Below are positions 23,865-46,511 of a DNA stretch of 64,000 nt, piece after piece (the first letter of the stretch is position 1; the number at the start of each line of letters is the position of its first letter). The DNA comes from an uncultured Actinomycetota bacterium (GTDB lineage: Bacteria > Actinomycetota > Aquicultoria > SKW223 > CALKMS01), in contig CAYRQL010000001.1 in NCBI GenBank assembly GCA_964426525.1, positions 130,294 to 194,293 of the forward strand. The letters are read 5' to 3'. The notes under the pieces were generated by a model. The model made no database searches and was not told the DNA's origin. It worked only from the letters and a program-made list of their open reading frames with translations. A program made the position numbers and the translations under genes.

Positions 23865-24884
23865 ATGAAAAACAAAGCCAAAGATATCGAATTCGTAGTC
23901 GATTCTTGCAGTGACTTACCTCGAATTGAAGAAGATTTAGGTTTTGGTTTTGTTCGGCTTTTAGTTGACGAAGCCGAAAGAAGGCAAGCTAAACACGATG
24001 TCAGGTCAGTGGAGGATGTTTTAATTGAGCTGCTGAGAAATTCTCGTGATGCCCAGGCAAAACATATTCTGGTTGCTGTTTCAACTACTGAGGACTCATT
24101 GAAACGGATTTTAGTTATTGATGACGGTCAGGGGATTCCGCCAGAACTTCATCAAAAAGTTTTTGATTCTCGTGTAACCTCTCGTTTGTACAATTTAATC
24201 GAAGACGATTATGGAATACATGGGCGAGGGATGGCTCTTTATGCAGTCAAGGCTCGTTCGAAAGAAGCAAAAGTTACCGCATCAGATGATGGAAAAGGAA
24301 CATCAGTTTATGTCGTAATTGATTTAAATGAACTTCCTCAAAGAAAAGACCAGTCAACCTGGCCTAAAATCATTTATCGAAAAAACTCTTACGAGATAAC
24401 ACAGGGCCCTCATAATATATTAAGAACACTGGTTGAATTTTACCTTCGGCATAACTATTTAGAAATTTTTGTAGGTTCACCAGCCGAGATTGTCGCGACT
24501 TTAAGATTTTTAATTGAACAAGGTTTTTTTGTCGGAACTTTATTTGAGCCATTGGGAGAAATAAGCAACGCTGCTGAGCTAAAACAATTGGCTGAAAATC
24601 TAGAACTGAACATTTCTCTTAGGAATGCTTATCGAATTTTAAAAGGGGAAATTGCTCCGGTTCTTTCAATTAAAGAAAAGATAAATTTATTGGCTGAGCG
24701 AAAACGTTCCAGCCAGAAACCACTAATTCATTCAGCTGATTTGGAAAGGGCGGAGAAAAGAATTAAAAAAATTATTTCCGAGCTTGGTCAAAAATACTTT
24801 TTAAACCCTGTTGAGTTAAAACTTACTCATCGTGGAAAAAAGCTAAACATAAGCGTAACTTTTGAAGAAATTGATAACCTTTGA
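23865..24884 (+). CDS. Orphan GHKL (histidine-kinase-like) ATPase-domain protein with an about 190-aa C-terminal region of unknown function
   Basis: N-box ELLRNSRDA, G1 VIDDGQGIP, G2 GIHGRGMALY. No recognisable DHp/HisKA or sensor domain precedes it. Sits between rny and spoVS. Confidence 0.6.
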   Translation: MKNKAKDIEFVVDSCSDLPRIEEDLGFGFVRLLVDEAERRQAKHDVRSVEDVLIELLRNSRDAQAKHILVAVSTTEDSLKRILVIDDGQGIPPELHQKVFDSRVTSRLYNLIEDDYGIHGRGMALYAVKARSKEAKVTASDDGKGTSVYVVIDLNELPQRKDQSTWPKIIYRKNSYEITQGPHNILRTLVEFYLRHNYLEIFVGSPAEIVATLRFLIEQGFFVGTLFEPLGEISNAAELKQLAENLELNISLRNAYRILKGEIAPVLSIKEKINLLAERKRSSQKPLIHSADLERAEKRIKKIISELGQKYFLNPVELKLTHRGKKLNISVTFEEIDNL

Positions 24885-32898: not shown

Positions 32899-35169
32899 GT
32901 GAGAACTATAGAGACATTAGGGAAGGAAACAAGTTTAGAAGCTAAAGACCCTCAACGGATAATTAATGTGATTGAAAAAGCAGGGGAGAAAGGAGATTCA
33001 ACCGACATAGCTTTACTGGTCACTACTTCTTCTAAAGCCGAAATTGATAGTTGGGACCGCAACCGAATTGTCCGTTGCCTGATTAGAGAGATAAATGCTG
33101 ACCCTGAATTAGCTGAAGAAATTGCTTCAGAGGTGGAAAAGGTTATTTTTGAAAGCCATCTTTCAACTGTTACTACCAGCATAATTCGGGAACTTGTTGA
33201 CATTCAGCTTCTTAAAAGAGGATTAGGTACTTTACACCAACGCCATACTCATTTGGGTTTGCCTACCTTTGATGTAGAGCAAATTATTCTCAATGCTAAC
33301 AAAGAAAACTCAAACACAACTCACAATCCGGAATCAATAAACCTGACTTTAGCCGAGAACATATTAAAGCAGTATGCTCTGACGAAAGTTTTTAGCGAAG
33401 ATGTAGCCCAAGCTCATTTAAAAGGTGATATTCACCTCCATGACCTAGGTTTTATAACTCGTCCTTACTGTGGTGGTCATTCGCTTGAATATATTAAAAA
33501 ATACGGTTTGTCCTTACCAAATATTACTTCGACCTCAAAGCCAGCTAAACATCCAGAGGTTTTAATTGGCCATATGGTCAAAATGGCTTCCACTTTACAA
33601 TCACATTATGCTGGTGCCATTGGTTGGGAAGCGGTTAACATTTTTTTTGCTCCTTTCTTGAAAGGTCTTCCATACAGCCGAATTAAACAGTTGGCTCAAA
33701 TGATCATTTACGAGTTTAACCAGTTAGCCGGGGCGCGGGGCTCTCAAGTTGTGTTTACTGATTTCAACCTTTACTATGGCGTGCCACCTCATTTTAGAGA
33801 TGTTTTTGCTTTAGGTCCTGGCGGAAAGTATCTTAAACCAAATGGCGATGATTTTATTTACCTTGATGAGCCAGAGGAAGGTTGTTTAACTTATAAAGAT
33901 TTTGAGTTTGAAGCCAATCAGTTTTTAAAGGCTCTTTTTGAAGTTTACCTCGAGGGTGATGCCACTGGTAAAACTTTTGTTTTCCCCAAACCTTTACTTC
34001 ATTTAAATGAGAGTTTTTTTCAGACTCCAGGCTGGGAAGAGCTGCTTAATTTGGCTTGCAAAGCAGCTTCCAAACAAGGAATTACTTATTTTGTGTTCGA
34101 TCGGGGCAGTGAAGTAACTGTTTCCCAATGTTGTCGTTTAAAGCTTCGCTTAGGAGAAAAGGACCTTCAAGAAGCTAAAACGCCGGAAAAACTAAGATTT
34201 ACTGCTCTTCAAAATGTAACCATTAATCTTCCGCGCATTGCTTATAAAGCAAGAGGTAATGATTGGCAGCTGACCAAAGAGATTATAAAGGCGATGAGAT
34301 TAGTGACAAAAGCTCATTTACAAAAGAAAAAATTTATCGAAAGCTTACTTGCTCTCGGAGAGAATGGCCCATTAGCTTTCTTTACGGCTGCTAAAGATGG
34401 CGAACCTTATTTAAGGGTTGACCGTTTAACTTATCTTTGTGGGATTTTGGGCTTAAATGAGATGGTTCAGTTTCATTATGGAAAGCAACTTCACGAATCA
34501 GAAGAAGCTTATAAGTTTGGGTTAAAGGTTATTGCCATAATGAGCCGGTATGCTCAAAAAATCTCAAAAAGATATAACATAAAATTGGTCCTAGAAGAAA
34601 CACCGGCTGAATCAGCGGCTTATCGTTTAGCTAAGCTCGATATGAAATATTATCCCTTTTTTGCCAGTAGGGTTCTTAAAGGAAATATTGAAAAAGGAGA
34701 GTTTTACTATACCAACTCGGTTCATTTTGCTGCTGATGCTCCCATTGATTATATAGAGCGGGTGATAAAACAAAGTCGTTTTCATCCAATGATTGAAGCT
34801 GGAGCAATTATTCATATTTGGCTTGGAGAAAGCGAGCCTCACCCTGATTCAATTAAGAATTTTGTTATTAAAACTTTCAGCAGTACCCAAGCTGAACAAA
34901 TTGCTTTTAGTCCTGAATTTACTGTTTGCGAGGATTGTTATCGCACAAATAGAGGTCTTTTCACAGATTGTCCAAAATGCGGCTCTGAAAATGTTTACGG
35001 AATTACCAGAATAGTTGGTTACTTTTCCAAAATTCCCACCTGGAACAAAGGGAAAATAGGAGAGCTGAAGCAACGCATTAGAACTTCGCTTTCTGAGTTT
35101 GATCAGCACAGCGGAGGTGAAAATGAGAGCAAAATTCTTTTTCAAAAAAGATTGCCCAAGATGTCCTGA
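32899..35169 (+). CDS. nrdD: Anaerobic ribonucleoside-triphosphate reductase (class III RNR) with N-terminal ATP-cone
   Basis: Length 756 aa. C-terminal Zn ribbon (CEDCYRTNRGLFTDCPKCGS) and the glycyl-radical motif RIVGYFS. GTG start after a GAGGGGGA Shine-Dalgarno site. Confidence 0.9.
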   Translation: MRTIETLGKETSLEAKDPQRIINVIEKAGEKGDSTDIALLVTTSSKAEIDSWDRNRIVRCLIREINADPELAEEIASEVEKVIFESHLSTVTTSIIRELVDIQLLKRGLGTLHQRHTHLGLPTFDVEQIILNANKENSNTTHNPESINLTLAENILKQYALTKVFSEDVAQAHLKGDIHLHDLGFITRPYCGGHSLEYIKKYGLSLPNITSTSKPAKHPEVLIGHMVKMASTLQSHYAGAIGWEAVNIFFAPFLKGLPYSRIKQLAQMIIYEFNQLAGARGSQVVFTDFNLYYGVPPHFRDVFALGPGGKYLKPNGDDFIYLDEPEEGCLTYKDFEFEANQFLKALFEVYLEGDATGKTFVFPKPLLHLNESFFQTPGWEELLNLACKAASKQGITYFVFDRGSEVTVSQCCRLKLRLGEKDLQEAKTPEKLRFTALQNVTINLPRIAYKARGNDWQLTKEIIKAMRLVTKAHLQKKKFIESLLALGENGPLAFFTAAKDGEPYLRVDRLTYLCGILGLNEMVQFHYGKQLHESEEAYKFGLKVIAIMSRYAQKISKRYNIKLVLEETPAESAAYRLAKLDMKYYPFFASRVLKGNIEKGEFYYTNSVHFAADAPIDYIERVIKQSRFHPMIEAGAIIHIWLGESEPHPDSIKNFVIKTFSSTQAEQIAFSPEFTVCEDCYRTNRGLFTDCPKCGSENVYGITRIVGYFSKIPTWNKGKIGELKQRIRTSLSEFDQHSGGENESKILFQKRLPKMS

Positions 35170-35365
35170 AGCAAAAGAACTTTTAGCAAAAATTGACATA
35201 AGCTATGAAAGTTTTGATATCGAAACAATTGATGGCATGGCTGAAGCGGCTTACCACGATGTGTTTTCTACGCCTTCAATTTTAATACTTAGTGATTCTA
35301 ACGAGGAAGTTAAGAGTTGGAGAGGAGAACTTCCATCGCTGGAAGAGTTAAAAGAAGTTCTATAG
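35123..35365 (+). CDS. Small thioredoxin/glutaredoxin-fold protein with a CPRC (CxxC) motif
   Basis: 80-aa ORF MRAKFFFKKDCPRCPEAKELLAKIDISYESFDIETIDG... A strong GGAGGTGA Shine-Dalgarno site lies 5 nt upstream. The ORF overlaps the last 47 nt of nrdD in the +1 frame and ends 27 nt before the nrdG ATG. Confidence 0.55.
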   Translation: MRAKFFFKKDCPRCPEAKELLAKIDISYESFDIETIDGMAEAAYHDVFSTPSILILSDSNEEVKSWRGELPSLEELKEVL

Positions 35366-35391
35366 TTTTTGGCGGCTTTTTGCCGGCCTCA

Positions 35392-36054
35392 ATGCTAGAT
35401 TGGAAAGGTAAGGTCGCATCAGTATTTTTTACCGCTGGATGTAATTTCCGTTGCCCTTATTGCCACAATCCAGAGTTGGTAGCTGATATTGAAAACTTAA
35501 TACCTTTTGAATGGGAAGATCTCTACTCGCATTTAAAAACCAGAATTGGCTGGTTAGATGGGGTTGTTATTGGGGGAGGGGAGCCGACTATCCATCCTGA
35601 GCTGCCATTTTATTTAAAAAAAATTAAGGAATTGAATTATTTAATTAAACTTGACACTAATGGCAGCAACCCTTCTATGATTGATGAGCTCGTCAAGAAT
35701 GGTTTAGTTGATTTTATAGCTATGGACATAAAAACCGGCTTTAAACACTATAAAGATGCTACGGGAAATTTTGATTCAACAAAGCAAATCAAAGAAAGCA
35801 TTGAAATAATTATAAGTTCAGGAATTCATCACGAGTTTAGAACAACCGTTGTCCCTGGATTAGTTGACCGCCAGGATGTTTTAGCTATTGCTAAAGAGAT
35901 TCAGGAAGCTCGCGAGTATGTTTTGCAGCAATTTAATCCTAAGGTGACACTGAAGGAAAGTATGTGTTTAGTTGAGCCATACTCTTTTGAAACATTGCTA
36001 AGCTGGGCTAACGAGGCAAACGAAATTGTTCCAACCAGATTGCGAGGTGTTTGA
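35392..36054 (+). CDS. nrdG: Anaerobic ribonucleotide reductase activating protein (radical SAM, NrdG family)
   Basis: CNFRCPYCHN radical-SAM cluster near the N-terminus and the GGEPT glycine-rich block. Immediately downstream of nrdD. I chose the ATG at 35392 over an in-frame TTG at 35380 and the ORF-track start at 35317. Confidence 0.75.
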   Translation: MLDWKGKVASVFFTAGCNFRCPYCHNPELVADIENLIPFEWEDLYSHLKTRIGWLDGVVIGGGEPTIHPELPFYLKKIKELNYLIKLDTNGSNPSMIDELVKNGLVDFIAMDIKTGFKHYKDATGNFDSTKQIKESIEIIISSGIHHEFRTTVVPGLVDRQDVLAIAKEIQEAREYVLQQFNPKVTLKESMCLVEPYSFETLLSWANEANEIVPTRLRGV

Positions 36055-36495
36055 TTGTTGAAAATTAAAGTGAAGGTTAAAAGATTAGACCCCGGGCTAC
36101 CTCTACCCCGTTTTGCTCATCCGGGGGATGCTGGGGTTGATCTTTTTAGTCGAATTGATGTTTTACTTGAGCCAGGAGAACGAAAAACTATACCAGCAGG
36201 TATAGCTATAAGTTTACCTTCTGGTTGGGCAGCTTTTATTCAACCCAGAAGTGGTTTAGCGGCTAACCATGGGATCACAATTGTTAACACCCCTGGCTTA
36301 ATAGACTCTGGTTACCGTGGCGAAATAAAAGTTATTTTATTAAATACCGATAAAGAGAAAAGTTTTGAAATAAAAAGAGGCGATAAAATTGCCCAGATGG
36401 TAGTTCAGCAAGTAGCCGAAGTAGAATGGGAGGAGGTGAACGAACTCGACTCAACTTCTCGAGGAGCTGGCGGTTTTGGAAGCACTGGAATTTAA
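36055..36495 (+). CDS. dut: dUTP diphosphatase
   Basis: dUTPase motifs (AGVDLFS, RSGLA, the GLIDSGYRGEI block, RGAGGFGSTG). Confidence 0.9.
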   Translation: MLKIKVKVKRLDPGLPLPRFAHPGDAGVDLFSRIDVLLEPGERKTIPAGIAISLPSGWAAFIQPRSGLAANHGITIVNTPGLIDSGYRGEIKVILLNTDKEKSFEIKRGDKIAQMVVQQVAEVEWEEVNELDSTSRGAGGFGSTGI

Positions 36496-36551
36496 ATCTT
36501 TTGTAAATTGGGGAGGGAAAGAGCCCATTTGAACAGCTAATATGCTTCCAG

Positions 36552-36573
36552 ACGCTTTCTAAGCGTTTTTTTA
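36552..36573 (+). terminator. Probable rho-independent terminator after dut (ACGCTTtctAAGCGT plus T7)
   Basis: Short GC-containing inverted repeat followed by TTTTTTT about 55 nt after the dut stop. Confidence 0.4.
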
Positions 36574-36768
36574 AGCACCGGTTATATTTTTTATATATTT
36601 AAGGAGTTAAATTATCTCTTTTAAATCCTTTTAATTATGTATTTAGATAATTCACGAACATTTAAGGGGACACAATTAAACACGAATGTTAACATTGTTA
36701 ATTTATTATTAAAAAGAAGCCTTATTAATCTTCAATTTTTTTCAGAGCTTTAATTTTTTTTTTGCACT

Positions 36769-36788
36769 TAGTTTAAATTAGTTTAAAT
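36769..36788 (+). repeat. Tandem 10-bp repeat (TAGTTTAAAT x2) inside the 460-bp AT-rich spacer, preceded by a T11 tract
   Basis: Exact duplication seen in the sequence. Confidence 0.7.
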
Positions 36789-36955
36789 ATTTAGTAACAC
36801 CAAATGGGGAGTTAAATCGTTTATAATGTTAGAAATAATTTAAAAGTAAATTCTTTTGTTACGATAATATATGTTATGTAAACTAAAATAATGTTTGTTT
36901 TAAATTTTTAATTAGGTAAAATAGAGTGGTATAAAGAAGGACGGTTGAAGAGGAA

Positions 36956-37588
36956 ATGGCAAAGTTTTATGAAGACTATTGCGATAGAGCTTGTGGACAT
37001 TTAAAGCTTTCTGAGAGACGTTGTTTTCGCAATGAATGTCACCTGAAAAATTTTTTTGATGAGCTATTGTTGAAAATACCTAAAGATACTATGTTGAGTC
37101 TTTCGGATACCATTAGGGCTCTTCAATTAGAAAATGATTTAAGAAATACCCGTTATGGAAGCTTAATTAAACAAGTCAACCTTAAAGGTCCTACCCTATT
37201 AATTAACTTTGATGATTCTGTTCTTTCTGCTGAAGATAAAATAAAGTTAAACTTTGTTAATCCTGACGAAGTGCTTATTATTTCTGCCTATCGTATTTTA
37301 GTGACTAATCCTCAAATTCATGAGTTTAAGCTATCTTGCGCTCTTAAAAATTTACCTGAGGTAAATTTGGTAACCACCCGACATCGGCTGATTGAATTAA
37401 TTTCTCATAGTGGTATGAGTGAAATTAAGAGAGATTGGAACGCAATTTGGAATTACTTCCGTCCAGTCCTAAACAATCCCGAGTTTGCTGATAAGGTTCG
37501 CCAATTTTTGAATGGTTATTCAAATGACAACCCAATCGAAATTCAGAGTCAGGAATCGCCCGGTTGGCTTAATAAGTTTTTGAAATGA
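36956..37588 (+). CDS. Hypothetical protein with an N-terminal Cys/His cluster (C-x3-C-x-H ... C-x4-C-H), probably metal-binding
   Basis: 210-aa ORF. N-terminus MAKFYEDYCDRACGHLKLSERRCFRNECHLKN. AAGAGGAAATG Shine-Dalgarno site. No family recognised. Confidence 0.45.
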   Translation: MAKFYEDYCDRACGHLKLSERRCFRNECHLKNFFDELLLKIPKDTMLSLSDTIRALQLENDLRNTRYGSLIKQVNLKGPTLLINFDDSVLSAEDKIKLNFVNPDEVLIISAYRILVTNPQIHEFKLSCALKNLPEVNLVTTRHRLIELISHSGMSEIKRDWNAIWNYFRPVLNNPEFADKVRQFLNGYSNDNPIEIQSQESPGWLNKFLK

Positions 37589-37596
37589 TAAGATAA

Positions 37597-38415
37597 ATGA
37601 AGAAAGTTGCTTATCCCATAACTTATTATGCTTTTACACGAGAAGCTATTTTCTATCTAATTCTTTTATTATTAATTTTGGTTCTTTCTCTTTTGCCCTT
37701 AAATTTGCTGGCCGCCATATCTGTTTTCCTTTTTATCCCGGTTATTTTAGCTTCAGCTTTTTGGTTTAAAAATGGTGGTTTTTGGGCAGGAATAGTTTCT
37801 GCTTCTATCTTAATAGCTGTTTTTGTTGCGGTTTTTTTGGCTGATTTTTCTTTTTCTCCCCTGGCAACTCTTTCTTTCTTTTTGGTCATACTTTACCCGG
37901 TTGCCGGCTGGTTTTTGGGGCAAACTGCTCAATCGGTATCAAATCAATTTGGCGAACTAGAGCAACACAGATTGAGTAGCGCGATTAGCGCTATTTATAC
38001 AAAAGAATATTTATCAAATCTTATTCATAAATATATTAAAGAATACGAAAGATATAAAAGTAATTTTTCTATTATTTTAATGGAGATTGATCCCAAAGCT
38101 ATGGAAGCAGTAAGTGCTTTTCGGCGAGAACATATACTAAGTGAAATCGCTTCAGTTATAAGGAAGAATATAAGAACAATTGACGAGCTTGGTCGTTATG
38201 AAAATCAGTTTTTAATGGTTCTTCCCCATACTCCTTTTCAGGGTAGCCAGGTTGTTGAGGGAAGGGTTAAAAACTTGATTTTAAAAGTCTTACAAAGTCA
38301 TGGTTGCGAACCAACCTCTGAACAGATTTATGCTGCTGCTGTTTCTTATCCAGAAAATAAACAGGGCATGGAAAAACTTCTTCATGCCCTGGAAGAACCA
38401 ATCTCTTTTTCCTAG
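37597..38415 (+). CDS. Membrane-anchored (about 4 TM) degenerate GGDEF-domain protein. Active-site motif RYENQF in place of RYGGEEF. Retains an RxxD I-site.
   Basis: Hydrophobic N-terminal 110 aa. C-terminal region aligns to the GGDEF fold (SIILMEIDPKAMEAV... RTIDELGRYENQFLMVLPHT). The I-site RTID sits 3 residues before RY, the same spacing as RAIDLPCRYGGEEF in PleD. Confidence 0.55.
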   Translation: MKKVAYPITYYAFTREAIFYLILLLLILVLSLLPLNLLAAISVFLFIPVILASAFWFKNGGFWAGIVSASILIAVFVAVFLADFSFSPLATLSFFLVILYPVAGWFLGQTAQSVSNQFGELEQHRLSSAISAIYTKEYLSNLIHKYIKEYERYKSNFSIILMEIDPKAMEAVSAFRREHILSEIASVIRKNIRTIDELGRYENQFLMVLPHTPFQGSQVVEGRVKNLILKVLQSHGCEPTSEQIYAAAVSYPENKQGMEKLLHALEEPISFS

Positions 38416-38436: not shown

Positions 38437-38877
38437 TTACTTTTTGCCTTCGACCTCTTTTTTTATAGCGTCTATTTTGCTTTTAATTTCTTCAAGCTCA
38501 GCTTTAAGTTTTTTAACTTCTTCTTCTTTAGCCTTTATTTCTTCTTCCTTAGCTTTAACCTGAGCATCTAACTCATCAATTTCTTTCTTTCTCTCATTCT
38601 TTTTAATTTCAAGCCGGCGCTCAAGTATTGATGAGATTAAAGCTTCTTCTTCTGGGTATTTCTCAAGGCATTCAGGCCCTACCGAATGAACCATACTGCC
38701 AACCTGGACTTCTTTTCCTTTAATAATCTTGCGGGCGTCCTTGTAAAGTTTGTAGGTGTCCCCTTCTAGAATGTAGTACTCAGCATAAACCACACTGTCA
38801 GCGTCGCAAAGAAAACACTTTTCCGCTTTTTCAACTTCCTTTCCATTTTTGAAATCATACTCGAAATATACTCCCAT
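38437..38877 (-). CDS. Hypothetical small protein, paralog 1: N-terminal MGVYFEYDF...CFLC domain plus a C-terminal E/K-rich coiled coil
   Basis: 146 aa. Shares about 40% identity over the first 90 aa with the ORF at 39606-40019. The C-terminal 50 aa are almost pure K/E heptads. Confidence 0.5.
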   Translation of the reverse strand: MGVYFEYDFKNGKEVEKAEKCFLCDADSVVYAEYYILEGDTYKLYKDARKIIKGKEVQVGSMVHSVGPECLEKYPEEEALISSILERRLEIKKNERKKEIDELDAQVKAKEEEIKAKEEEVKKLKAELEEIKSKIDAIKKEVEGKK

Positions 38878-38908: not shown

Positions 38909-39613
38909 CTAAATTAAGATAGAATGGCCCGGTTCAAGAACTTTTCCTTCAAAACCCCTTTCTTCAATTTGAGAAAGAAACTGAGCAGGGTCAACCTGGC
39001 GGGACTGATAAATGCCAGCGGGGAGATTATAGTGCATAGGGATAGCAATACGAGGCTTAATTTTGTCAATAGCCATAATAGATTCCGTCAAGTCCATTGT
39101 CGTTCCACCACCAATCGGTATAAGCAATAAGTCCGGTCTCCATTCTTCCCAGTCATCCCTTAATAGAGTTTCGCCTAAATGGCAAATTGTGCGCTCTTCC
39201 AAAGTAATAAAATAACCAAGCCCTTCAGGTGTTGCACTTTTTCTTTTAAATAAGCTCCTCAATCCTCCCCCAATTTGTCCTGGTGAAGCTTTAAAAGCCT
39301 GGATTTTTACCCCAAGAATATTAATTTCTTCCTGGGATTTTATTGCTTGAAAATTAACATTCTCCACATCGATGTGCTCTTTTAATTCCTCAGGTCCCAC
39401 TACAACCTTAAAACCTGAAGAAATAACTGACGGGAGAGCTCCTGAATGGTCTTCGCCAATCGAAGTTACTAAAACTAAATCAGTATCGCTGTATTCTTCC
39501 TGACGAATAATTGGATTTTCTTCTGGGATGGCTTTCCCAGGGTCAATTATAATTTTAACTGTTTCACCCTTAACAACGAAGGAAGAATAGCCATAAAAAA
39601 CTACTCTAACCAA
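38909..39613 (-). CDS. Metallo-beta-lactamase-fold protein (UPF0173-like) with a degenerate HxHxDH motif
   Basis: YGYSSFVVKGETVKIIIDPG start and DLVLVTSIGEDHSG (only the DH of HxHxDH is kept). Later His/Asp residues (IPMHYN) remain. Overlaps the upstream paralog gene by 8 nt. Confidence 0.6.
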   Translation of the reverse strand: MVRVVFYGYSSFVVKGETVKIIIDPGKAIPEENPIIRQEEYSDTDLVLVTSIGEDHSGALPSVISSGFKVVVGPEELKEHIDVENVNFQAIKSQEEINILGVKIQAFKASPGQIGGGLRSLFKRKSATPEGLGYFITLEERTICHLGETLLRDDWEEWRPDLLLIPIGGGTTMDLTESIMAIDKIKPRIAIPMHYNLPAGIYQSRQVDPAQFLSQIEERGFEGKVLEPGHSILI

Positions 39614-40019
39614 CTTTACCCTCCTTTGCTTTTTCTAAGTGATAATATAGCTTTCCCAATCGCTCTACTAACTCCAAGAACTCTTTTTTGGTTTCTTCGA
39701 TTTCTTTTTCGATTGTTTGTGTTTGAGAAGTGATTTCTGTCTCCTTTTCTTCTTTTCGTCGCCTAATAATCTCTGATACTAAACTTTCCTCGCTCCCATA
39801 TGTGTTATAGCAGTCTTCACAAATCATATATTCAGCACTTCCTACTTTGATTTGATGCCCACTATGAAGTTTTCTTGCATTGTCATATAGAGAATAAACT
39901 AACCCGGTTTTTATGTGATATTCGACAAAAAGCACTTTTTTTTGTTCACAAAGATAACAGGGAAACCACCTTTCAACTTCTTTTCCCTCTTCAAAGTCAT
40001 ACTCGAAATATATCCCCAT
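39606..40019 (-). CDS. Hypothetical small protein, paralog 2: MGIYFEYDF... with two CxxC pairs (CYLC ... CEDC, zinc-ribbon-like) plus a coiled-coil tail
   Basis: 137 aa. The conserved N-terminal block is MG[VI]YFEYDFxxGKEVE...CxLC...EY.I..G..Y.LY.NARK...G...VGS. Confidence 0.5.
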   Translation of the reverse strand: MGIYFEYDFEEGKEVERWFPCYLCEQKKVLFVEYHIKTGLVYSLYDNARKLHSGHQIKVGSAEYMICEDCYNTYGSEESLVSEIIRRRKEEKETEITSQTQTIEKEIEETKKEFLELVERLGKLYYHLEKAKEGKVG

Positions 40020-45980: not shown

Positions 45981-46511
45981 TTAGAAGTTACTGGCTAAAA
46001 TTTGCTCGATCTTGTTCAAGATTGTTTCAATGGTTGTTTCTGGTTTAGTAAGTCGGCGTTCTAATTCATTTTTTAAAATGTCCAACCAGCCATGAATTAA
46101 TCGGCGGACAAAAGAAACTTCGGCTTCTTTGTTGCGCAGTGCAGCAAGACTTTTTTCTAACTCTTCAATAGAGCTGTCAGTGGGTTTTCCTGTTAAAGAA
46201 GGTAAGGTAAAAAGATTAGCAAGATCAACATCATCAAGACTTTTCTTACAAGAAACGGGAAAAGATTCAAGAGTAGAAGCAAGACTTTCAAGTAATGAGC
46301 GATCTCTAAGAGAAGGATTAGCTGCTAAACGATTAATAAGTTCAGCTTTAAAGCCATTATCGATCTGATGAAGGTTGTTTCTGAACTGAGAAACTTCTTT
46401 TTCTAATTCACTGAGCTCTGCAAAAAGTTTCTTCAAATCAGAAACTGACTTGCTTTCAATATTGAGAAAGGCTTCCTGAAGTTCTTTTAAGTCCATTTTT
46501 TTCTCTAACAT
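45981..46511 (-). CDS. Hypothetical coiled-coil protein (176 aa)
   Basis: First gene of the minus-strand operon ending in Mut7-C. No recognised domain. Confidence 0.4.
   Translation of the reverse strand: MLEKKMDLKELQEAFLNIESKSVSDLKKLFAELSELEKEVSQFRNNLHQIDNGFKAELINRLAANPSLRDRSLLESLASTLESFPVSCKKSLDDVDLANLFTLPSLTGKPTDSSIEELEKSLAALRNKEAEVSFVRRLIHGWLDILKNELERRLTKPETTIETILNKIEQILASNF

Follow-up and report, generated by a model that had tools for sequence, protein, structure and literature searches.

What does a membrane protein do when its GGDEF-fold domain has lost the active site of a diguanylate cyclase and has kept the inhibitory site (I-site) for c-di-GMP (cyclic dimeric guanosine monophosphate)? 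The question is raised by a gene on contig CAYRQL010000001.1 of an uncultured Actinomycetota bacterium (GenBank assembly GCA_964426525.1), in a stretch of 64,000 nucleotides (positions 130,294 to 194,293 of the contig; hereafter “the window”, to which coordinates refer unless a related locus is named). Our analysis suggests that the 272-residue product is a catalytically dead, membrane-anchored GGDEF protein that probably serves as an I-site receptor for c-di-GMP. A preliminary description of this DNA had likewise proposed a receptor rather than a cyclase, and the proposal is supported in silico by the decay of the catalytic residues together with the retention of the I-site throughout the degenerate relatives.

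The protein belongs to the GGDEF domain superfamily. The profile alignment gave a match to Pfam PF00990 at 29.0 bits (gathering cutoff 23.8; E 1.1e-6), in which the domain delimited in Table 1 covers profile positions 9–146 of 161; the TIGR00254 score, 32.6 bits, lies under the cutoff of that model (37.4). The best phmmer match in the PDB is the diguanylate cyclase 3ign, a GGDEF domain crystallised with c-di-GMP (E 2e-6), and the same structure matches the family profile with an E-value of 6e-24. An AlphaFold2 (AF2) model, built from seven sequences, has a mean predicted local distance difference test score (pLDDT) of 65.9, with values of ~75–86 inside the GGDEF domain; after a stalk helix its domain runs alpha-beta-alpha-beta-beta-alpha-beta-alpha, which is the GGDEF order. 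Foldseek comparison of the model with the PDB returned GGDEF domains for all of the top 31 matches, with target-normalised TM-scores of ~0.6 to isolated GGDEF domains. The fold assigned in the preliminary description is thus confirmed by profile, sequence and structure matches alike.

The residues required of a cyclase are gone from this fold. In the alignment with 3ign, GRYEN-QF stands opposite GRYGGEEF: the hairpin carries a one-residue deletion, the glycine pair is replaced by E202-N203, and the second glutamate of GGEEF by Q204. RYE(N/S)QF is conserved within the clade of close relatives, and the full loop length is kept in more distant degenerate relatives. The metal site is altered as well: MEIDP.K.AME lies opposite FDIDHFKPVND, so that the first aspartate has become a glutamate (E163) and the asparagine a methionine, and the two guanine-binding positions (N335 and D344 in PleD) are occupied by M169 and E178. 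Residue-level alignments also show that the query lacks the C-terminal YxAK-GRN segment. We therefore rejected an active diguanylate cyclase as a candidate, as the GG(D/E)EF motif, the metal aspartate and the guanine-binding Asn/Asp are all missing; none of the sequence criteria allows the protein to be a diguanylate cyclase. The shortened YENQF hairpin had already been read as an inactivated active site, and the substitutions at positions 163, 169 and 178 bear that out.

The primary I-site, by contrast with the active site, appears intact: RTID is followed by E-L-G-R-Y and then by the motif position, so that five residues separate the RxxD from the former GG(D/E)EF downstream. Direct reading of the codons and the alignment with 3ign both agree with the position and spacing that had been reported for it. 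The second arginine of the primary pocket would be R223, at a position that we take to be equivalent to R390 of PleD. A third arginine, R152, closes helix alpha1 and is a candidate secondary I-site residue; it would occupy the position of WspR R198 if the intervening stretch is ungapped (HMMER pairs query residue 132 with residue 178 of 3bre). With respect to active cyclases that carry an I-site (3ign, PleD, WspR), the protein thus has the same fold, with the RxxD and the arginine of ERIR at the same position and spacing, but lacks their GG(D/E)EF motif, metal aspartate and guanine-binding residues.

The pattern extends across a large family. A profile search over 1.84 billion representative proteins gave 8622 matches with E-values of 1e-3 or lower, 146 of them at 1e-10 or lower, and we inspected 155 proteins, namely the 150 best of these 8622 matches together with close homologues: 101 have a degenerate active site, and 54 an ordinary GG(D/E)EF. 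Most of the degenerate proteins are 250–300 residues long and match the query in the membrane part as well as in the domain. All 101 keep R193 and D196, and 97/101 keep R223, whereas the former catalytic positions vary, with E, D, T, S, K or R at the metal site and D, E, S, G or N at the positions of the two glycines. The metal-aspartate column is D in 54/54 active-type relatives and variable in the degenerate ones; two further columns, both aligned less securely, are N in 29/54 (the asparagine) and D in 42/54 (the second aspartate) of the active-type proteins. Bias of the search profile alone does not suffice to explain the I-site pattern, because positions that are equally invariant in the profile (E163, Y201, E202, Q204 and H211) are not conserved among the matches. 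When 79 degenerate relatives were aligned independently with MAFFT, no columns except R193 and D196 were invariant, and R152, R223, P210 and T212 were among the few conserved at 90% or above.

Relatives reached by another route show the same feature. Seven distinct proteins, from eight metagenome loci, were found through peptides of the transmembrane (TM) domain only, and all keep the RxxD (as RAIDE, RAVDE, RLVDD or RMVDD) beside unrelated degenerate loops. A word-index homologue search with the 79-sequence alignment, in which 8000 candidates were scored, gave 10 matches and was uninformative. Degenerate domains also cluster with one another: 90% of their five nearest neighbours are degenerate, and the query domain scores 82–105 bits against degenerate outgroups vs. 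at most 65 bits against any active-type domain. Judged by these comparisons, the degenerate domains are one coherent, receptor-like family, and not a set of independent recent wrecks.

Within the immediate clade the degenerate state is maintained by selection. Close relatives comprise only six clusters in 5.8 billion proteins (52–89% identity, 271–275 residues), all of which keep R-x-I-D-E-x-G-R-Y-E-(N/S)-Q-F, and homologues between 89% and 38% identical have the same length as the query. The start codon is supported by the N-terminus, in which M1, P7, T9 and Y10 are invariant in six homologues. A scan of genome contigs found two loci only, both close orthologues, one of them from Candidatus Geothermocultoraceae (class Ca. 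Aquicultoria, Actinomycetota). The ratio of nonsynonymous to synonymous substitution rates (dN/dS) against ~89%-identical orthologues is ~0.03–0.04; dS is near saturation in this comparison, so the ratio is rough, yet it lies far below 1, and the gene is therefore not a decaying pseudogene.

The N-terminal part of the protein anchors it in the membrane. The AF2 model has helices at residues 8–32, 37–55 (split into 37–44 and 47–55), 61–83 and 88–128, in agreement with hydropathy, and the earlier count of about four TM helices holds. The loop FKNGG at residues 57–61 is conserved, and G104 and G108 in TM4 are conserved at 90% or above in the 79 relatives. The last helix, H88–128, is a single long helix that leaves the membrane as the stalk, with low pLDDT over residues 118–132; the stalk contains ELEQ (residues 120–123, all four invariant within the clade) and a degenerate DxLT region (SSAISAIYTKEY). 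Pfam searches of the 79 degenerate relatives matched DUF4118 in 17/79 and MASE1 in 10/79, but the query itself matches neither, with no hit to DUF4118 (PF13493) at E up to 1. A profile made from the TM part of the clade alone scores just 15–28 bits on distant relatives.

Table 1. Coordinates of the features discussed; positions with a locus prefix belong to related loci of the sister subfamily, all others to the window.
Feature	Coordinates	Strand	Basis or remark
Degenerate-GGDEF gene	37597..38415	+	Complete open reading frame, 272 codons plus stop, ATG start; 4TM anchor, stalk helix, degenerate GGDEF domain
Membrane anchor, residues ~14-108	37636..37920	+	Four predicted TM helices (~14-33, 36-56, 61-82, 88-108)
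Stalk, cytoplasmic extension of TM4, residues ~109-132	37921..37992	+	Joins membrane to GGDEF domain
GGDEF-fold domain, residues 133-264	37993..38388	+	Pfam, PDB sequence matches, Foldseek
R152, candidate secondary I-site arginine (RY closing helix alpha1)	38050..38052	+	Opposite last R of RFRRY in 3ign
E163, in place of first Asp of D-x-D metal site (PleD D327 position)	38083..38085	+	MEID opposite FDID
Primary I-site RxxD, R193-T-I-D196	38173..38184	+	Codons read directly; aligned to RQSD of 3ign
Degenerate hairpin R200-Y-E-N-Q-F205	38194..38211	+	Replaces R-Y-G-G-E-E-F, one residue shorter
R223, putative second arginine of primary I-site pocket	38263..38265	+	VEGRVK opposite CERIRE (3ign)
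Cys-rich gene (210 residues), co-oriented, likely operon partner	36956..37588	+	Ends 8 nt before the GGDEF ATG
FliA/WhiG-family sigma factor, 252 residues	3788..4546	+	TIGR02479, 238.9 bits vs. cutoff 189.6
RsiG-like protein	45981..46511	-	PF22802, 59.5 bits
Pilin-like gene	L010:5862-6203		
Pilin-like gene	L022:5640-5978		
Pilin-like gene	L025:3641-3979		
Pilin-like gene	L027:44-391		
Pilin-like gene	L029:3550-3975		
Pilin-like gene	L030:282-569		
Pilin-like gene	L032:2017-2337		
Pilin-like gene	L033:73-525		

Receptors of this general kind are known, and the query agrees with their class in each sequence feature examined. PopA of Caulobacter crescentus has a degenerate GGDEF domain that uses its I-site as a c-di-GMP receptor; it differs from the present protein in being a soluble proteolysis adaptor with two receiver domains and no membrane anchor. 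PelD (P. aeruginosa, B. cereus) is likewise a membrane-anchored degenerate GGDEF protein that binds c-di-GMP at the I-site, and its anchor is a 4-TM DUF4118 module (PMC7890745), the module also matched by the minority of relatives noted above. PelD, however, has a GAF domain between anchor and GGDEF and is encoded in a pel operon, and the query has neither. We rejected membership of the PelD family: the stalk of ~25 residues leaves no room for a GAF domain, there is no match to PF16963 (PelD_GGDEF), and pel genes are absent; up to an E-value of 0.01, the family profile matches no PelD chain in the PDB. PelD and PopA, which the preliminary description had named as precedents, thus fit as members of the I-site receptor class, but two other proteins are closer.

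These are YdaK of B. subtilis and PssE (Lmo0531) of Listeria monocytogenes. YdaK has 283 residues, four TM helices and a soluble domain at 112–283; SDERI replaces its GGDEF, its RxxD lies at 202–205, five residues upstream, and it binds c-di-GMP (PMC5422440, PMC7064775). The substitution R202A abolishes the c-di-GMP-induced conformational change and the function of YdaK (PMC5422440, PMC7064775), and the I-site arginine is also needed for contact with the cyclase DgcK (PMC7064775). In PssE, the GGDEF domain spans residues 107–285, with the motif DKDDA and an RxxD again five residues upstream, and binding has been measured: each protein binds two c-di-GMP, with a Kd of 0.79 uM (PMC4125290). All three proteins are of similar size (272 vs. 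~283–285 residues), fuse a TM anchor directly to a degenerate GGDEF domain (the soluble part begins at ~109 in the query), have the motif destroyed (SDERI, DKDDA and, here, ENQF), and carry the RxxD five residues upstream. They differ in setting: YdaK and PssE are encoded in exopolysaccharide operons and activate a synthase, whereas no glycosyltransferase or polysaccharide gene is adjacent here. We regard YdaK and PssE as the closest known proteins by architecture, a likeness drawn from their published descriptions; no SDERI-bearing protein is among the best 150 relatives.

By analogy with these systems, the protein may work as follows. The four TM helices would hold it in the membrane, and TM4 would continue into the stalk helix, at whose cytoplasmic end the GGDEF-fold domain would sit; dimerisation through the stalk is plausible. 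An intercalated c-di-GMP dimer would sit in the pocket formed by R193, D196 and R223, and might be bridged by R152 from another subunit; binding of c-di-GMP itself we consider probable. Binding would change the conformation or the pairing of the domain, and the change would be passed to a partner by protein–protein contact. The likeliest partner would be the co-transcribed four-cysteine protein of 210 residues; alternatively, a membrane partner may be contacted through the TM module. On the identity of the partner we are much less confident than on the binding, and the assignment is tentative.

The 210-aa gene directly precedes the GGDEF gene. Its product has four invariant N-terminal cysteines (C9, C13, C23 and C28), a conserved GWLxKF tail at its C-terminus and, between the two, an alpha-beta-beta repeat domain; it is lineage-restricted (9 clusters), and no Pfam family matched it. 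Co-transcription of the two genes, already suggested in the preliminary description, is likely: they lie on the same strand with a gap of 8 nt, and a promoter and terminator scan found no plausible terminator between them. The single terminator-like match, at 37897–37911, falls inside the GGDEF coding sequence and is fewer than in shuffled sequences, and the one weak promoter-like match (9 of 12 positions, no more than chance) falls inside the 210-aa open reading frame (ORF); promoter and terminator counts are no higher than in shuffles. The 210-aa gene precedes the GGDEF gene in every related locus with sequence at that place, down to 38% identity of the GGDEF protein, with the exception of L018, whose 742-bp gap upstream of the GGDEF gene is without a called gene.

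The sister subfamily appears to have a different partner. P0010, the outgroup closest to the clade (~25% identity, E 1e-34), and the proteins related to it come from metagenomes with G+C contents of 37–71%. A gene of ~95–150 codons lies directly upstream on the same strand in 10/10 distinct loci with upstream sequence, and its product is recognisable as a type IV pilin-like protein in most of them. The prepilin motif GF(T/S)L(V/I/T)E is present in most copies; those of L030 and L032 lack it at the chosen start, yet align with the family. PF07963 matches 6/8 members, and the conserved residues are C46, N49, C88, H111 and usually C105. We considered whether the 210-aa protein is a diverged form of this pilin-like partner and rejected it (hhalign probability 0.1); there is no pilin-like ORF within the window.

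The conserved pair suggests that the membrane module of the family works with a small, membrane-embedded partner, and that the Aquicultoria clade has swapped partners. A broader and more speculative reading, which we hold to be possible but rather doubtful, is that these proteins constitute a broad undescribed family of ~255–300-residue 4TM receptors with dead GGDEF domains and an invariant I-site, whose ancestral partner was the upstream pilin-like Cys3-His protein operated by a c-di-GMP switch, and that the Aquicultoria clade replaced that partner with the soluble 210-aa Cys4 protein with its membrane-seeking tail, giving a new output. The family is seen at least in basal Actinomycetota, and most of its other relatives are metagenomic, at 37–71% G+C. 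In a narrow literature check we found no description of a GGDEF/pilin-like pairing.

Is there c-di-GMP for such a receptor to bind? Pfam annotation of nearly all window ORFs of at least 100 aa yielded housekeeping genes, and a search of the window and nine related loci for other GGDEF, EAL, HD-GYP or PilZ genes (phmmer with 52 active-type GGDEF proteins, and motif regular expressions) recovered the target only. A whole-window Rfam scan, covering c-di-GMP riboswitches and any other RNA, gave no match at gathering thresholds. Apart from the target, the window shows a single c-di-GMP component, a pair formed by the WhiG-family sigma factor and the RsiG-like protein (Table 1). WhiG is the best equivalog of the sigma factor, at 269.8 bits, under the cutoff of 343. 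The RsiG-like protein has a single, near-canonical c-di-GMP motif, EAEVSFVRRLIHGWLD (with Q replaced by H), in the arrangement E129-x3-S133-x2-R136-x3-H140-x3-D144, which is kept in orthologues. In basal actinobacteria, RsiG proteins with a single motif form homodimers that bind c-di-GMP together with WhiG (PMC8325347). The WhiG/RsiG-like pair makes c-di-GMP signalling in the organism plausible, and the support it lends is circumstantial but relevant. As to their surroundings, the sigma-factor gene directly follows an XerC-like integrase gene and a TrmFO/Gid-like gene, and the RsiG-like gene adjoins genes for an FHA/zinc-ribbon protein and a MerR (Rv1828-like) protein; at the locus of one distant relative, L022, the RsiG, FHA and MerR genes lie ~4.5 kb from the degenerate GGDEF gene.

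Several observations weigh against a c-di-GMP receptor. No active GGDEF, EAL or HD-GYP gene is present within the 64 kb of the window. Unlike YdaK, PssE and PelD, the gene has no polysaccharide system or other obvious output system beside it, and a Wzy_C gene ~5 kb away occurs in one relative only (L017). The pair with the 210-aa gene is part of a longer stretch, of more than 15 kb, whose synteny extends to all relatives; because the whole region is collinear, adjacency of the 210-aa gene is weak evidence of a functional link. The RxxD is also found in 53/54 active-type matches (the arginine in 54/54), and the search favours it; moreover, the relatives all come from profile or pattern searches, and members without RxxD could rank below the best 150 of the 8622 matches.

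These points leave room for other explanations, of which we consider four. The RxxD and R223 may have been kept as a protein–protein interface, for example with an active cyclase, or as a stabiliser of the fold, in a scaffold or adaptor that acts independently of nucleotides. Degenerate GGDEF domains of LapD and FimX are among the fold matches, and to our knowledge neither is known to bind c-di-GMP through its GGDEF domain; the I-site arginine of YdaK is required for the DgcK contact too (PMC7064775), and no cyclase was found within the window. We nevertheless think a scaffold unlikely: without the same residue, YdaK does not undergo the conformational change that c-di-GMP induces (PMC7064775), and nowhere is the family more conserved than at the three or four residues of the c-di-GMP pocket, whereas the rest of the surface drifts. 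Binding of another nucleotide (GTP, (p)ppGpp or a different cyclic dinucleotide), whether in the I-site or in what is left of the active site, would fit the lack of c-di-GMP enzymes in the available sequence and the remodelling of the hairpin, which is one residue shorter in the clade, with E202, Q204 and H211 clade-invariant. The substrate-binding positions, however, are variable in the wider family, the residues that are conserved are those of the c-di-GMP I-site, and the WhiG/RsiG-like pair in the window points to c-di-GMP, so that we consider another ligand quite improbable.

It is also conceivable, with a low probability in our estimate, that the protein has no downstream partner of its own and acts as a negative regulator or sink, either by forming a heterodimer that blocks an active membrane cyclase or by buffering c-di-GMP. 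GGDEF domains act as dimers, and many active membrane cyclases recovered by the same search share the TM–stalk–GGDEF layout; the linked partner gene, conserved in the clade and different (pilin-like) in the sister subfamily, argues instead for a dedicated output. That enzymatic activity persists, in a divergent nucleotidyl cyclase whose unusual active site would include E163, E202 and Q204, seems to us extremely unlikely: acidic residues near the metal site (E163, D165 and E202) are invariant in the closest clade, but the glycine pair that binds substrate phosphate, the guanine-binding Asn/Asp and the C-terminal Lys/Arg segment are missing, and the same catalytic positions vary freely across the wider family. 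A c-di-GMP receptor, which we prefer to these four, would make use of the very residues that the family has kept.

The mechanism of such a receptor is already well established, and the protein adds to the known YdaK/PssE-like layout an example from a deep-branching, uncultured actinobacterial class. Annotations routinely call a degenerate GGDEF domain a diguanylate cyclase (the JGI label of the homologues is “diguanylate cyclase (GGDEF)-like protein”), which inflates counts of c-di-GMP producers and hides receptors. If binding is true, the Cys4 protein and the pilin-like protein would be new c-di-GMP outputs beyond polysaccharide synthases. The protein is a clean, testable receptor candidate that is of moderate interest by itself; the two types of partner are of somewhat more.

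Several other genes flank the locus or lie farther off in the window. Upstream lies an anaerobic ribonucleotide reductase cluster (32899..36495, + strand) that encodes NrdD, a thioredoxin-like protein of 88 residues, the radical-SAM activase NrdG and a dUTPase; ORFs of the cluster overlap, with one starting at 35099 before the NrdD stop at 35169, and another at 35317 before 35365. The spacer between the dUTPase gene and the 210-aa gene (36496..36955) is 460 bp long, very AT-rich and contains weak promoter-like hexamers only, and related loci have a spacer of 200–700 bp at the same place. Farther upstream, at 23865..24884 (+ strand), lies the gene of a 339-aa protein in which HATPase_c is the sole domain detected, neither HisKA nor any other being matched at E up to 1e-6.

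Downstream, 21 nt after the GGDEF gene, begins a convergent operon that encodes a 146-aa protein, a hydrolase of the metallo-β-lactamase (MBL) fold, and proteins of 137 and 104 residues. The preliminary description had noted that the GGDEF gene faces this operon; the convergent position stands, but nothing beyond the synteny of the whole region points to a functional link. We rejected the MBL operon as part of the system, since the region from NrdD to a K+ channel gene is collinear in all relatives and adjacency is uninformative. Two paralogous small proteins, encoded at 38437..38877 and 39606..40019 (both − strand), flank the gene of the MBL-fold hydrolase (38909..39613). Both begin with MG(V/I)YFEYDF and have a charged coiled coil at the C-terminal end, as well as cysteine pairs of the CxxC type; no Pfam family is assigned to either, and their arrangement around the hydrolase gene is conserved in all related loci.

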